Source: Haliotis cracherodii (Eukaryota). From it: DNA of 64,000 bases. Below are positions 42,424-51,410 of this stretch, in pieces; positions within the stretch are counted from its first letter, which is position 1; each line of letters opens with the position of its first letter. The stretch spans positions 67,022,001 to 67,086,000 of the forward strand of contig NW_027266264.1 in assembly GCF_022045235.1 (NCBI RefSeq), written 5' to 3'. The translations under genes and the position numbers were made by a program. Below the pieces are notes generated by a model. It was not told the origin of the DNA, made no database searches, and saw only the letters and a program-made list of their open reading frames with translations.

Positions 42424-42722
42424 TTACAAGTGACACTGATCCATTCGAATCCACTGTTGTTTTATAGGAGAGGTACTGCCACCCTGCTTCCTGATTGGTT
42501 CCCCAGGCAGCGCCCCCGATTGGTTCGTTTCGGTGCCTGGTCTGCACCTCGGTTTTCCAAAACGGACCGACCCCTGTGTTTCTTTTCCATAGGAAATGGA
42601 TTTTACCATGGGAGAGAAAGCACAACCCCGGTTCGGCCAATCAGAGCCCGCCATGGCCCGAGCGCGGCTTCTGATTGGTCGATAACCCAGGCTTCGGATT
42701 GGTCCGATTTCGATCCGGGTTT
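42424..42722 (-). promoter_or_regulatory. Promoter cassette P1 (multi-CCAAT, AAGAAACACA, TATAAAA)
   Basis: One of four homologous ~250-300-bp cassettes. AC box at 42575-42584 and TATAAAA at ~42460-42466 on the minus strand. Confidence 0.75.
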
Positions 42723-42954
42723 TTTCTTCTTGGGTAGCCTTGGTATTTTTTTGAGGTAGACGGTCGTCTGAATGCAAAAGGAAGGTGGACCTTCATAGGT
42801 AGACATGAACGTGGGAATGCCTACGTGATGTACGTGTGTGTCACTCCCATGCCAATCGGAATGTCAATCGGAATGTCATGTGGGTTCTTTGTTTTGGATT
42901 GTTGTTTGGGTTGGTAAAGCAAAGGTGGAAAGTTGTCTTTTGGGTGAGATGGGT

Positions 42955-42970
42955 GGCCCTGAAAAGGGCC
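42955..42970 (-). terminator. Histone-type 3' stem-loop downstream of BIR gene 1
   Basis: Minus strand reads TAC GGCCCTTTTCAGGGCC ACCCA TCTCACCC AAAAGA, 60 nt after the stop at 43031. Confidence 0.85.
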
Positions 42971-43030
42971 GTATTAACAGGAACTTGAACGGGAACTTGA
43001 ACGGGAACGCAGGACACGGGAAACGTCCTC

Positions 43031-43483
43031 CTAGGCAGCCGGCTCTGCTACGTCATTCGTGTACCTCTGTTTCTCTTCGCAGAGATAGTGTAGTTGTAGT
43101 TGCTTCTGGTGTTTCACCAGCCCGGTTAGCTTGAGGTAATCGCAGTCTGGGGACCACTTGTGATGTGCCGCCCAAGGATTGTCGTGGGGTGCCCATTGTC
43201 TCAGCCGCACACCACATTGGAAACAGCATACACCATCGGCACCCTGAGTGTAGACAAAGCCCGCATGAGCCATCTCTTCAGCAGTCTGATACATTTGCGT
43301 GGGCCACGTCTCAAACGAAGCGAGCCTTCTTTCAAAGCGTAGATAATAGTGCGATGGTGTTTGACTGAGCAGTGACACCGCCTCCTCGGCATGACTCTTA
43401 CTCCAACATCCACGAGTATCTGTACTATCCATCCCCACATCTTCGCCACGCGTCGTCGTACCACTCTTCTTTGTTTCAGCCAT
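43031..43483 (-). CDS. Single-BIR inhibitor-of-apoptosis-like protein 1 (150 aa from MAETKK)
   Basis: RRLASFETWP..MAHAGFVY..DGVCCFQC..WAPHDNPWAAHHKWSPDC is a BIR fold with the CX2CX16HX6C zinc ligands; no RING. Confidence 0.9.
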   Translation of the reverse strand: MAETKKSGTTTRGEDVGMDSTDTRGCWSKSHAEEAVSLLSQTPSHYYLRFERRLASFETWPTQMYQTAEEMAHAGFVYTQGADGVCCFQCGVRLRQWAPHDNPWAAHHKWSPDCDYLKLTGLVKHQKQLQLHYLCEEKQRYTNDVAEPAA

Positions 43484-43501
43484 TCTTGATTTTATCACAT
43501 C

Positions 43502-43800
43502 AATTTTACAAGTGACACTGGGCCACTCGAATCCACTCTTGTTTTATGGGGGAAGAACCGGATCGAAATTGGCTGCTTCCTGGTTGGTCCAAAACGCAAC
43601 GCACCGATTGGTTCGTTCCGGTGCCTGGCCTGCACCTCGGTTTTCCAAAACGACCCGACCCTTGTGTTTCTTTTCCATAGGAAATGGATTTTACCATGGG
43701 AGAGAAAGCACAACTCGGGTCGGGTGCTGTCTTCTGATTGGTCGATGCTGTCTTCTGATTGGTCGACAATCCAGGCTTCGGATTGGTCCGATTTCGATCC
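43502..43800 (-). promoter_or_regulatory. Promoter cassette P2 (between divergent BIR1 and PolB genes)
   Basis: Homologous to P1/P4; several ATTGG/CCAAT boxes, AC box at 43663-43672, CATAAAA TATA-like box. Confidence 0.75.
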
Positions 43801-43881
43801 TGTTTTGGGGAAGGGTTGTCCATCCATCAGACGTTCAGACCCTCTTAGAGTACAGGCGTTCATCAGACACACATCGCTATC

Positions 43882-48139: not shown

Positions 48140-48345
48140 GATCTGGGTTGTCGACCAATCAGAGGCAATGCTCGAGCCATGGTGGGCTCTGATTGGTCGA
48201 ACCGAGGTTGTGCTTTCTCTCTCACGCTACAAGCCTAACCCTATGGAAAAGAAACACAAGGGTCGGTCCAGTTTGGAAAAATGGAGACTCAGACCAGACA
48301 CCGGAACGGGCCAATCAGAAAGCAGGACCTCCGTGGCTTTTAATA
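48140..48345 (+). promoter_or_regulatory. Promoter cassette P3 (diverged copy) upstream of spliced E1A/E7-like gene
   Basis: GGGTTGTCGACCAATCAGAG..GGTCGAACCG..CCTATGGAAAAGAAACACAAGGGTCGGTCC is homologous to P1, P2 and P4. Confidence 0.7.
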
Positions 48346-48561
48346 CGACCGATGCTCTCCGGTCATCACTTTTCACTGAACGGACCAAGCAACCACATCG
48401 CCCCTCTGATTGATGTTCCTCACGTTGTGTTGGTTGTTGGCGTTTTATCTGGAAGAAACACGTGTTTGGAGAGAGTACCATCAAGTGTTGACACACCTCC
48501 GTGAAGACTTGGAAAGAAACAACAACAACAACAACAACGAACAGAACATCCGGACAACATC

Positions 48562-49669
48562 ATGTCGAAACGGTTGAATGACAAGACACGAAGCGACATG
48601 AGTGGCCAAGGAAGCAGTGGAGATGGGAACGGTGACATAACTGCTGAACTGTGGGGTGAAGTGTACGACTTGCTGTGTTTAAAGATGAAGACCGACGATG
48701 CGTACGCCAAGTTACGTGCGAAGGGCGACAACCTGATGTGCGAACAGATACGTTCAAAGATGAGGAAGCTGACTGAACCCGAGAAAGGCACATCGAAGAA
48801 GACGATAAAGAAGATCCAGAAGAAAAAGACAAGCAAACCCACAGTCGTTGTGATCCCCACAGCAGCAGCAACACCCACCACCACCACCACCACCACCACA
48901 GCGCCAGTCCCCACCACCACCACCACAGAAGCAACAGCAATAACGGCTGCAGCGACAACAGACATCGAAACGATGGGGACATCCTTTTTGAAACCTGCAA
49001 CGCCTGCAAAAAGACGATCACGGAAGAAATTATCTCTGAAGATCTCTCCTCAAGAACAGCTGTAAGTACCCTGCTCTTCTTTGTCTCAGTCATTCTTGAT
49101 GTGATTCATATTCATGACCTATTCCTATGATAAATGGACTCTGTCCTATGATTGACAGGACCCCTGATGTCAGTTCAGCCCAGTCCGTGCTAGAACAGTG
49201 GTGGGAACAAACCCCTCGGGAGCCCACCTATTCACCGAATGCCCCTGCTGTGACGATGGCGACGGGTGACCGTGATGATCATGAAGCGCTCAAGCTGGCC
49301 ACTCTCCCTTCCATGGATCTGGACACGCTCCCCGTGCTTGAGGCTTCTTGGTCACCAGCATCCCCAGAAGATGTTCATGTCTACTCCTCAGGTACGCCCC
49401 TGGTTTGCGACGATGATGATGATGATGTTGATGACAACGTTGACCTGGATCCTTATGGAGAAGCTCAACTCACTCCCCTACAACGCGGATGTCGTGTTTG
49501 CCGACACAACAACATGCTCAGATACATCAGTTGCAACAGCGGGCAAGTGATGTGTCATGTCTGTGGTCTGGAGCTCATAGACTGTACTTGTAGTATGTTG
49601 ACCTATGACAGCATAATGACACATGATGACATGCCTATCACATCTGCTGAGGATCACATCTTATGGTGA
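48562..49669 (+). CDS. Two-exon putative regulatory protein (48562-49061 + 49159-49669, ~336 aa) with basic/Thr-rich N-part, LxCxD-acidic motif and C4 zinc finger
   Basis: Donor CT|GTAAGT at 49061/49062 and acceptor TTGACAG|G at 49158/49159 join the two listed ORFs in frame. Contains LVCDDDDDD then GCRVC-x17-CHVC. Confidence 0.65.
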
Positions 49670-50419
49670 TCCTGCTCTTCACTCGAAGAACTTGTCAACA
49701 CGTAAGCTGCAACCGTGATCAATTGATGTGTCATGTCTGTTTCAGGGAGGCCATAGACTGTACGTGTTGAACGGATGGACCTCTCACATGTTTGAGGGAG
49801 GACCACCTCTTATGGGCTTGAAGATGGAAGAGGAAAACGTTGTCGCGTTATTGTTGTTGTTGTTGTGGTTGTTGTAGGGACATGCAAAGCACTCCCTCCT
49901 CCATTGACTTTTCGTATTTCCATTGTATCTGGTTGTGATTGGTTTTTTCATGATTAAACAGTGATTGATTGAACTGACTCTTTGTGTCTTGATTGATCTC
50001 AACTCCAATAGAGTGCCGAACCGAGGGTAGAGGTTGAGTTGAGATGTCGTTTACGTTGTCTGTCCGTCTGTCTGTCTGTATGTGCATCTGTCATGTCAGT
50101 GCACACCCAAGTGTAAAATTAAAATAAAAATAGATAAAAGAGAAAGGCCATGCTTGAAAGATCAGCTGCCTGGTGTCAGTCATTCTAGTATGCATCGATC
50201 CCCACACCCCTCCCCGGGTACCATGTCATGTCATGGATCATGTCATGGATCATGCCGTGTGTCCGTCAACCCAAACACAGGATGACGTCACGTGATGAGG
50301 TGGAGGAGGTGGAGGAGGTGGAAGCTAAGGTCATGACCTTCCGTTGAAGGGAGTAGGGTGGAGAGTTTCATAAAAGCAGGCGAACCCTCAGACCTTCTTT
50401 CAGTGAAGTCACCGTCATC

Positions 50420-50932
50420 ATGGAGCAAAGACGTTCTATGAATGTCATGTCATCCTCCCGAGATGTCGTCACCGATTCCGAGTGGGTGTCTGAAAAGGCG
50501 AGAGAACAAGAAGCGAGAAAACGTCCCCTCTTTAGGGACGACACGTGGCGACTCAGTGACATTCTGGAGGGACCTTTTCCTTCTTACACCCTGTGTCATC
50601 CTTCTCATCCTCACTATGAATCATTTCAAGAACGTCTGAGGTCTTTTAAAACGTGGCCTAAACAGATGACCCAGACCCCGTATGACATGGCCATGGCTGG
50701 CTATTTCTATCCAGGACGAGGTGACTGTGTGACCTGTTATTGCTGCGGTGTGGCACTCCGCCAATGGGAAGCCACAGACCAACCCTGGAAAGAACATCTG
50801 AAGCACGCCAAAGTCCCCTGCGAATACTTGTGTGTGTTTTGTCCTGATGGAGAAGTGAACGAAAAATACAGACGTTTGGTGTCCCAAGAAGCACGGAGGA
50901 GAAGAGTCGAGTGTCTTGTTCACCCCAAGTGA
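50420..50932 (+). CDS. Single-BIR inhibitor-of-apoptosis-like protein 2 (170 aa)
   Basis: ERLRSFKTWP..MAMAGYFY.G.GDCVTCYCC..WEATDQPWKEHLKHAKVPCEYL is a BIR domain; no RING. Confidence 0.9.
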   Translation: MEQRRSMNVMSSSRDVVTDSEWVSEKAREQEARKRPLFRDDTWRLSDILEGPFPSYTLCHPSHPHYESFQERLRSFKTWPKQMTQTPYDMAMAGYFYPGRGDCVTCYCCGVALRQWEATDQPWKEHLKHAKVPCEYLCVFCPDGEVNEKYRRLVSQEARRRRVECLVHPK

Positions 50933-51117
50933 CAAAGTTTCTTTTTTTCAAAGTGTACAGACGTTCATACCCCTCGTGTTCACAAAATTCACAGGGACGC
51001 CCCCTCATCCTGTGACTTTTTGTTTTGTGGTGTTGGTTCATGTGAGCAGGGGGATTAAATTTTTTTAAAAACCCATAGTCGTGTTCTGTGGTCTGTAGGA
51101 TGAAGAAAAACAAAACA

Positions 51118-51410
51118 GGATCGAAATGCACACCCCGATAAAAAAACAGGATCGAAATTGGACCAATCCGAAGCCTGGGTTGTCGACCAATCAGAGACCA
51201 TACTCGGGTCATGCGGGACTCTGAATGGTCGAACCGGGGTTGTGCTTTCTCTCCCATGGTAAAATCCATTTCCTATGGAAAAGAAACACAGGGGTCGGTC
51301 CGTTTTGGAAAACCGTGGTGCAGACCAGGCACCGAAACGAACCAATCGGGGGCGCTGCCTGGGGAACCAATCAGGAAGCAGGGTGTCAGTGGCTCTCCTA
51401 TAAAAACAAA
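51118..51410 (+). promoter_or_regulatory. Promoter cassette P4 upstream of zinc-knuckle gene
   Basis: CCAAT at ~51163, ~51187, ~51342 and ~51367; AAGAAACACA at 51281-51290; TATAAAA at ~51399. Confidence 0.8.

Follow-up and report, generated by a model that had tools for sequence, protein, structure and literature searches.

Introduction

The systems closest to the locus considered here are the replication-dependent histone genes of animals and the Polinton/Maverick elements. The locus lies in a stretch of 64,000 nucleotides of Haliotis cracherodii DNA (contig NW_027266264.1, positions 67,022,001 to 67,086,000; the whole stretch is called the window below), where a Polinton/Maverick, termed segment A, holds four copies of a promoter-like module, P1 to P4. 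Histone mRNAs are described as the only non-polyadenylated cellular mRNAs of animals (PMC9745837). Human H1 promoters have a conserved H1 box, a CH1UE, a CCAAT and a TATA box, the H1-specific ones being read by CRAMP1, according to PMC12240685.

The units of segment A that a module precedes resemble metazoan replication-dependent histone genes in being short and intronless, with a canonical stem-loop and a purine-rich downstream element. Like histone promoters, their modules have the AC core (AAACACA), CCAAT boxes paired at 24 nt, TTCGATCC and a leader similar to that of H3, and P2 is arranged head-to-head as in the H2A-H2B pairs. The element genes differ from histone genes in that they encode no histone and are dispersed in a mobile element; moreover, no single histone promoter was matched, the GTCCGCG element of the host H1, H4 and H2B genes is absent, and one module would drive a gene that is predicted to be spliced and has a poly(A) signal.

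The Bidnaviridae, single-stranded DNA viruses of insects without an integrase, have a genome with a protein-primed polymerase (pPolB), in two segments with shared termini. Segment A and the partner described below (segment B) are like them in the pPolB and in the two segments with shared termini, and unlike them in that both halves are integrated double-stranded DNA elements with target-site duplications (TSDs). VSR is a motif in pPolB, and F54H12.2 is a label for the capsid proteins of Polintons. Capsid-less Polintons are known, nine elements without MCP, PRO and ATPase being reported in PMC4028283. With the Polintons/Mavericks of the pPolB2/VSR type found in marine molluscs and nematodes (PMC10748475), our family shares terminal inverted repeats (TIRs), AG...CT ends, the 6-bp TSD and pPolB, and, across the family as a whole, the rve-chromo integrase, ATPase, penton, MCP and protease. 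It differs from them in that the core genes are split over two co-terminal elements of ~11.3 and 10.4 kb.

In the literature searched, at the level of listings and abstract openings and with few subscription journals, no histone stem-loops in transposons or viruses are described. Neither a bipartite or complementing Polinton nor histone-type cis-elements in Polintons, Haliotis Mavericks included, were found in it; the supplementary element tables of PMC10748475, PMC4028283 and PMC10294476 could list split elements.

Results

The four modules are paralogues inside a Polinton/Maverick. Their positions and motifs are given below.

42424..42722, minus strand: module P1 (motif scans, alignment to host histone promoters)
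42708-42715, minus strand: GATCGAAA of P1, with a CCAAT pair at 42702/42678 and a reversed AC-like site at 42616-42626
42575-42584, minus strand: AC box of P1, with a CCAAT pair at 42523/42498 and TATAAAA at 42460-42466
42427-42439, minus strand: H3-like leader of P1, TCAGTGTCACTTG
43502..43800, minus strand: module P2, with AC box at 43663-43672 and TTTCGATCC immediately 5' of CATAAAA (43542-43548)
48098..48345, plus strand: module P3, with AC box at 48249-48258, a single proximal CCAAT at 48311 and TTTTAATA at 48338
51118..51410, plus strand: module P4, with GATCGAAA at 51119 and 51150 and CCAAT pairs at 51163/51187 and 51342/51367
51281-51290, plus strand: AC box of P4, with GGTCCG at 51297 and TATAAAA at 51399

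All four modules are present where a sequence-only reading of the window had placed them. They can be aligned with each other, and each contains one exact AAGAAACACA (42575 and 43663 on the minus strand, 48249 and 51281 on the plus strand); these are the only four matches in the window, while shuffled windows gave 0.23 on average and none of 100 shuffles reached four. Since the modules are duplicates of one sequence, the four matches represent one event and not four, and the fourfold match shows descent, not function. P1 and P4 are 93% identical over 266 nt, the remaining pairs ~81-85%. Several CCAAT boxes are found per module, as had been claimed: four in P1, five in P2 (one of them CCAACC), two and a reversed one in P3, and four in P4. 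In P4 the AAACACA core (51284) is 115 nt and the final CCAAT (51367) 32 nt upstream of TATAAAA, close to the ~110 and ~30 nt estimated earlier, and of the four modules P1 and P4 alone have GGTCCG behind the AC box, the two named in the earlier reading. The canonical TATAAAA is likewise restricted to P1 and P4, with CATAAAA in P2 and TTTTAATA in P3. Five CCAATC pairs spaced 24-25 nt were found in P1, P2 and P4 and none in shuffles, and all six GATCGAAA sites of the window are within or at modules. Each module precedes a distinct open reading frame (ORF): an 80-aa ORF, a BIR-domain ORF, the P3 gene and a zf-CCHC ORF, in the order P1 to P4. In intact copies the ATG follows the P1-, P2- and P4-type modules by ~20-50 nt, and a stem-loop follows the ORF. 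P2, standing back to back with the pPolB start, is predicted to be bidirectional on the basis of a reverse CCAAT and TATAAATA in a related subfamily and of a sense module 5' of pPolB in an undivided copy.

Constraint was examined in 27 alignable module copies from 17 loci, 24 of which were kept after the removal of three near-duplicates (mean identity 62%); some of the copies are decayed, by which the ranking is blurred and not biased. The conservation of AAACAC, present in 21 of the 24, was 0.93, which ranks second among 251 six-base windows. The proximal CCAAT reached 0.90 and the spacer between the proximal CCAAT boxes 0.56, at a module mean of 0.72; the values were 0.87 for the reversed AC-like site and 0.86 and 0.90 for the outer CCAAT boxes. 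CCAAT pairs 24-25 nt apart recur among divergent copies. The AC box is thereby supported as a constrained site, and the importance attributed to it in the sequence-only reading is borne out by this rank and by the host-level scores given below.

The modules were compared with a host reference set fetched from the host genome (G000), comprising six H1 genes, the core quartet and one H2A variant. AAACACA is the vertebrate H1 box; a literature search for it gave no relevant paper. Five of the six host H1 promoters have AA[AG]CACA at -157 to -179 from the ATG, and the AAACACA of the modules is at -161 to -186. With a position weight matrix (PWM) for the AC box the modules scored 13.4-14.1 and the host sites 12.5-14.8, and between 0 and 5 of 200 shuffles did as well as the modules. 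The top-scoring site of P1, and also of P4, was the reversed AC-like one. The AC box is separated from the TATA-like site by ~86 nt in P3, 115 nt in P1 and P4 and 121 nt in P2, compared with ~84-88 nt in the host H1 promoters, the longer distance in P1, P2 and P4 being due to an extra CCAAT unit. The host motif TCTTCTC..A.GTCCGCGC, the GTCCGCG element located before the TATA region, is present in all six H1 promoters and in those of H4 and H2B. This element was found in none of the 27 module copies, and an H4-type PWM, whole or halved, detected no host-level site in the modules (-2 to 7 versus 32-38 in the host). The CCAAT pair in turn occurs in none of the six host H1 promoters, nor in those of H4 and H2B. 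In blastn searches of the four modules against nine host histone loci simple repeats only were obtained (best non-repeat E 0.6). Thus the classic H1 layout claimed before holds for the AC box at an H1-like distance within a histone-type layout, and fails in respect of the GTCCGCG element and of alignment to H1. GGTCCG, taken previously for an H4-type element, was rejected as a functional box on its low conservation (rank 114 of 251, kept in 7 of 24 copies).

The proximal 200 nt of the promoters were aligned locally and expressed as z against shuffles. P1 gave z values from -0.8 to 1.0 with the six host H1 promoters, and the control, two H1 promoters tested against other H1 promoters, gave 4.5-13 in nine of ten comparisons; the best module-H1 alignment (P4-H1b, z 3.3) is at noise level. 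This alignment to host histone upstream regions, suggested in the sequence-only reading, produced no convincing H1 match, and the best match was to H3, for P1 and P2 only. P1 aligned to the host H3 promoter with z 6.7 (0 of 150 shuffles) and P2 with z 3.6; after masking of the CCAAT boxes the values were 5.6 (0 of 300) and 4.5 (1 of 300), respectively. The P1-H3 alignment is collinear over ~135 nt, and its masked score rests on a 15/17-nt match at the predicted start site. An H3-like leader was seen in P1 and P2, and in neither P3 nor P4. The 24-nt CCAAT spacing is found in the host H3 and in four of eight further H3 promoters from metagenome contigs. TTCGATCC lies upstream of the TATA region in both host H2A genes; in the element it occurs in both orientations. 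Eight of 27 copies, those of the P2 type, have it in sense directly 5' of the TATA-like site, and P1, P2 and P4 have it in antisense at their distal end; the scores of these three modules with the H2A-type PWM were matched by 4, 1 and 1 of 200 shuffles, respectively. The H2A promoters of six other animals did not show this motif. The host H1 genes themselves (L031; L057) form a 3,012-bp tandem array, together with what we take to be a 5S rRNA gene, apart from the 4.25-kb core-histone quartet, and C34 has three single H1 genes with no stem-loop behind them.

Three histone stem-loops exceed the Rfam gathering score of 34 (RF00032), and they stand behind the P1, P2 and P4 genes, so that the proposed association of modules with stem-loops applies to these three units and not to the P3 gene. 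The P4-side stem-loop and the 3' end of the tandemly arrayed host H1 gene agree in 40 of 47 nt (blastn E 5e-8), the AAAGA downstream element is in the same register as in host H1, and of 76 element sites 70 retain all six stem pairs. The GGCCC-type stem occurs on core histone genes of other animals too, one H2B end (L180) being almost identical to that of the element; therefore the donor gene cannot be named, and the argument from an H1-type stem is weakened.

The features of segment A outside the modules are the following.

41488..41493, plus strand: target-site duplication AGTATA, 6 bp (right copy 52704-52709)
41494..52703, no strand: Polinton/Maverick segment A, 11,210 bp (TIRs, AGTAGT/ACTTCT ends, TSD)
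41494..41855, plus strand: left TIR, 99% identical to 52342-52703 (362 nt)
42029..42074, minus strand: histone 3' stem-loop and AAAGA downstream element behind ORF1 (RF00032, 35.6 bits)
42160..42402, minus strand: ORF1, 80 aa, P1 cargo
42930..42975, minus strand: histone 3' stem-loop and downstream element behind the BIR ORF (RF00032, 34.1 bits)
43031..43483, minus strand: BIR-domain (IAP-like) ORF, 150 aa, P2 cargo (PF00653, E 1e-22)
43882..48078, plus strand: pPolB (PF03175, E 1e-28), in three frames in the window copy
48413..50128, plus strand: P3 gene, first ATG at 48413, longer ORF from 48562, AATAAA at 50123
50420..50932, plus strand: second BIR ORF (PF00653, E 2e-20), without module and without stem-loop
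51455..52057, plus strand: zinc-knuckle (zf-CCHC) ORF, 200 aa, P4 cargo (PF00098, E 4e-13)
52141..52186, plus strand: histone 3' stem-loop and downstream element behind the P4 ORF (RF00032, 34.5 bits)
52342..52703, minus strand: right TIR

TIRs and a TSD of 5-8 bp were found in all five segment A copies inspected, and none of the five gave a tblastn match to ATPase, INT, penton, MCP or PRO. On the left side a weaker similarity extends from the TIR to ~42072, across the stem-loop. By Pfam, the genes behind the modules encode BIR, zf-CCHC and unassigned proteins and no histone. ORF1 has no Pfam match and its Atlas leads are all under 0.9; its homologues in six other copies are Cys/His-rich, 97-112 aa long, and end 10 nt before the stem-loop. 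The P3 gene contains a GT-AG intron near 49392-49746, and is predicted to be spliced and polyadenylated. A GT..AG joint at 49387-49742 is present in contigs from two studies (runs X1 and X4, the RNA nature of which is guessed), a weak hint of transcription. The second BIR ORF has a short CATAAAA-type upstream region, common to the late genes of segment B. In G000 the 18-nt module core was counted 425 times, the stem-loop pattern was counted 282 times, and 21 of 128 pPolB rows have an open frame of more than 1,400 aa; the segment A family is young and multicopy. The host flank (window 5400-40000 and 53164-64000) consists of a ~16-kb tandem duplication with 43-bp minisatellite arrays. It repeats the first exons (9781, 25968, 53164) of one gene, presumably cytochrome P450-like, and the element is ~460 bp upstream of one of them.

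The segment B family came to light when a capsid fragment of an old copy was used as the query. All six copies examined (L093-L110, e.g. G000:C5:38614.6-38625.0 kb) are 10.2-10.6 kb long with TIRs and 6-bp TSDs, encode homologues of ATPase, rve-chromo integrase, penton, MCP and protease, and lack pPolB. The domains detected were rve (E 8e-12) with chromo, and, both below the cut-off, Capsid_N (E 0.005) and Peptidase_C5 (E 0.04). The proteins show 34-49% identity to those of an unrelated complete Polinton, and the closest named relatives of the capsid-like protein, among near-full-length named matches, are from Haliotis (52-99%). Segments A and B have common terminal sequence variants, which are interleaved, and in either family the young copies differ by 0-4% at synonymous sites. 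Within 20 kb of the first 46 of 116 listed pPolB loci there is no listed integrase, and for the first 20 of 57 listed integrase loci every listed pPolB is at least 380 kb away; a listed pPolB near an integrase was found in four of the 57 only, two of them broken, diverged undivided relatives and two copies of the unrelated Polinton, both locus lists being lower bounds. Taken together, segments A and B look like a two-segment Polinton.

Segment B carries one module (72% identical to P4, with the AC core kept), followed by an 86-aa ORF and a stem-loop, and its structural genes have only ATAAAA and TCAG upstream. The window region 50122-50433, upstream of the second BIR ORF, is 77-90% identical to the regions upstream of the segment B ATPase and the next ORF, and this type is predicted to be a second, short promoter class common to both segments. 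Older, broken undivided relatives are found at L111-L113 (G000:C3:34.08-34.09 Mb) and L083-L084 (G000:C23:52.50-52.51 Mb). In such relatives pPolB, module, integrase and capsid genes are in one unit, the module lying directly before pPolB in sense orientation (U3) or between pPolB and integrase (C23). The unrelated complete Polinton of the same genome (L074-L076, L128; G000:C4:10.27-10.29 Mb) is 16.5 kb long with 300-bp TIRs, contains neither module nor stem-loop, and has ends with little in common with ours beyond AGTAGT. PC4-like and BIR-like ORFs were read in it by eye.

The claim that the ORFs are swappable gained from two observations. In copy I78 each arm has P4 with the zinc-knuckle ORF and its stem-loop, as a 1,560-bp inverted repeat (99.4%), the P4 unit standing in place of the P1 unit, which is direct evidence of exchange between the arms; and the ORF behind the segment B module has its first codons in common with the P4 ORF and then differs. 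In a divergent relative (L061:6100-6517) a serpin fragment adjoining a module precedes the stem-loop. Pairwise dN/dS values among copies were mostly below 1 with very few changes, one BIR set being above 1, and were not used as evidence.

The stem-loop pattern was also found at 47 metagenome loci, many of them with a non-histone ORF ending 13-42 nt upstream. A repeat family of 20 of these loci, from another animal (L153-L192, e.g. L188, L154, L183), contains two tandem units, each with a copy of a duplicated CCAAT-rich promoter, a different ORF and a stem-loop, and a zf-CCHC gene. ORFs with DDE transposase and P2RX7_C domains end 18-24 nt before a stem-loop (L189:522-1595; L197:1100-1792; L173:435-812). 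Separately from these metagenome loci, L062:3889-4840 holds a single-exon SET-domain ORF (PF00856) preceded by CCAAT and TATA, the stop codon of which is followed after 14 nt by a stem-loop; this unit does not match the element. Searches with the module found nothing in phages or in metagenome contigs, those with stem-loops included, and viral contigs gave no match to the stem-loop pattern or to the MCP. Since the metagenome units do not match the module, the CCAAT-plus-stem-loop design seems to have arisen more than once.

Discussion

We favour, by a modest margin of confidence, the reading in which the Polinton has duplicated a predicted RNA polymerase II promoter of its own, composed as a mosaic of sites of the histone type. 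That the module functions as a promoter is very probable, and processing at the stem-loop is likely; histone-type, S-phase-linked control of the whole unit is somewhat better than an even guess. NF-Y would bind the CCAAT pairs, candidates for the other sites are a CRAMP1-like factor of the H1 box and a factor of the H2A type, and transcription would start ~27-30 nt behind the TATA box. U7 and SLBP would act on the mRNA at its stem-loop, cutting and protecting it. The resulting messages, without poly(A) and limited to S phase, would encode an apoptosis inhibitor and two zinc-binding proteins, so that accessory proteins would be made in dividing cells via the histone-gene route. The module may have originated as the replication-side (pPolB) promoter of an undivided ancestor and spread by duplication and exchange between the inverted arms, module and stem-loop/TIR acting as homology flanks around replaceable cargo. 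The capsid-side genes would use the separate short ATAAAA plus TCAG promoter.

Several observations weigh against this reading. The P3 gene has an intron and an AATAAA, and no histone stem-loop stands behind it. The stem-loop spacer is conserved at 0.94 and the stem at 0.98; as the spacer is nearly as conserved in young copies, the evidence for selection on the stem is weak. No U7 snRNA was found in an Rfam search of G000, and Logan contigs (4 of 22 runs, RNA nature guessed) cover all 30 bins, promoters and ORFs alike. The module-free CCAAT-plus-stem-loop repeats indicate that such units can do without an AC box. The matrices for AC and H2A were built on five and three host sites, respectively, and the host TATA-like sites were picked by eye. 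The H3 result is one among 55 comparisons and concerns P1 and P2 (P3 z 0.7, P4 z 1.1) and the H3 of this host only, and z values of 3-4 were obtained with unrelated promoters too (P4-H1b 3.3, P2rev-H4 4.0, P4-L181_H4 3.6).

A duplicated generic NF-Y/TATA viral early promoter, with AAACAC bound by an unrelated factor and only the stem-loop derived from histone genes, would account for the lack of blastn homology to the host histone loci, for the absence of GTCCGCG, the main histone element of the host, from all 27 copies, and for the use of a module without a stem-loop by P3; CCAAT boxes are, besides, common in promoters. However, the CCAAT spacing of 24 nt, the H3-like leader, which persists when CCAAT is masked, the AC core at an H1-like position and the H2A-type TTCGATCC all speak for histone promoters, and the unrelated Polinton in the same genome does without the module; we regard this explanation as rather unlikely. 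It is improbable that a whole H1 gene was captured with its promoter and 3' end, its coding sequence being replaced and its promoter diverging later. Such a capture would agree with a stem-loop nearer to that of host H1 (GGCCC stem, 40/47 nt) than to those of the core histones (GGTCC stem, 1 nt shorter), with the AC core at an H1-like distance and with the H1 AC-to-TATA spacing of P3. But P1 does not align with the six H1 promoters (z -0.8 to 1.0) while H1 promoters align with each other (4.5-13 in 9/10), the H1/H4 element is absent from the modules, and the GGCCC stem is on core histone genes of other animals as well (the L180 H2B). For the H1 genes of this host the capture is largely refuted by these comparisons. 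The histone 'chassis', which the sequence-only reading had regarded as captured or converged upon, is thus retained as a histone-type mosaic with cargo swap and three of four stem-loops, and not as a copy of H1.

The partial symmetry of the module (opposed AC-like sites, CCAAT pairs at both ends) and its presence at recombination joints are what a replication or recombination signal, or inert repeated DNA, might show. Yet in intact copies TATA and initiator are always 30-70 nt before the ATG, motif columns are more conserved than spacers, and true origins are expected in TIRs; we give this explanation very little credence. The module as a histone-type promoter mosaic remains our preferred reading.

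Concerning the partner, it is fairly likely that segments A and B complement each other, integrase and capsid for segment A being supplied by the polymerase-less element with the same ends. The helper might alternatively be the unrelated complete Polinton, the ends of which, however, share little with ours beyond AGTAGT, or an undivided master element outside this assembly. Only tentatively do we propose the full scheme, a bipartite, co-terminal polintovirus with a replication/accessory and an integration/virion half that would move together, with an S-phase-tied histone chassis and cargo exchanged from promoter to stem-loop.

Gene-content screens that need all core genes within 20 kb, as in PMC10748475, would miss split elements. 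The diverged series of modules, in which constrained sites are visible, offers a test set, ready for use, for the elements of histone promoters in invertebrates. If the proposed reading is true, a virus-like element would be a parasite of the histone-expression pathway, and the cell-cycle phase of Polinton activity would be indicated. Likewise, the co-terminal halves together with the older undivided copies would be a rare record of the origin of a segmented DNA genome.

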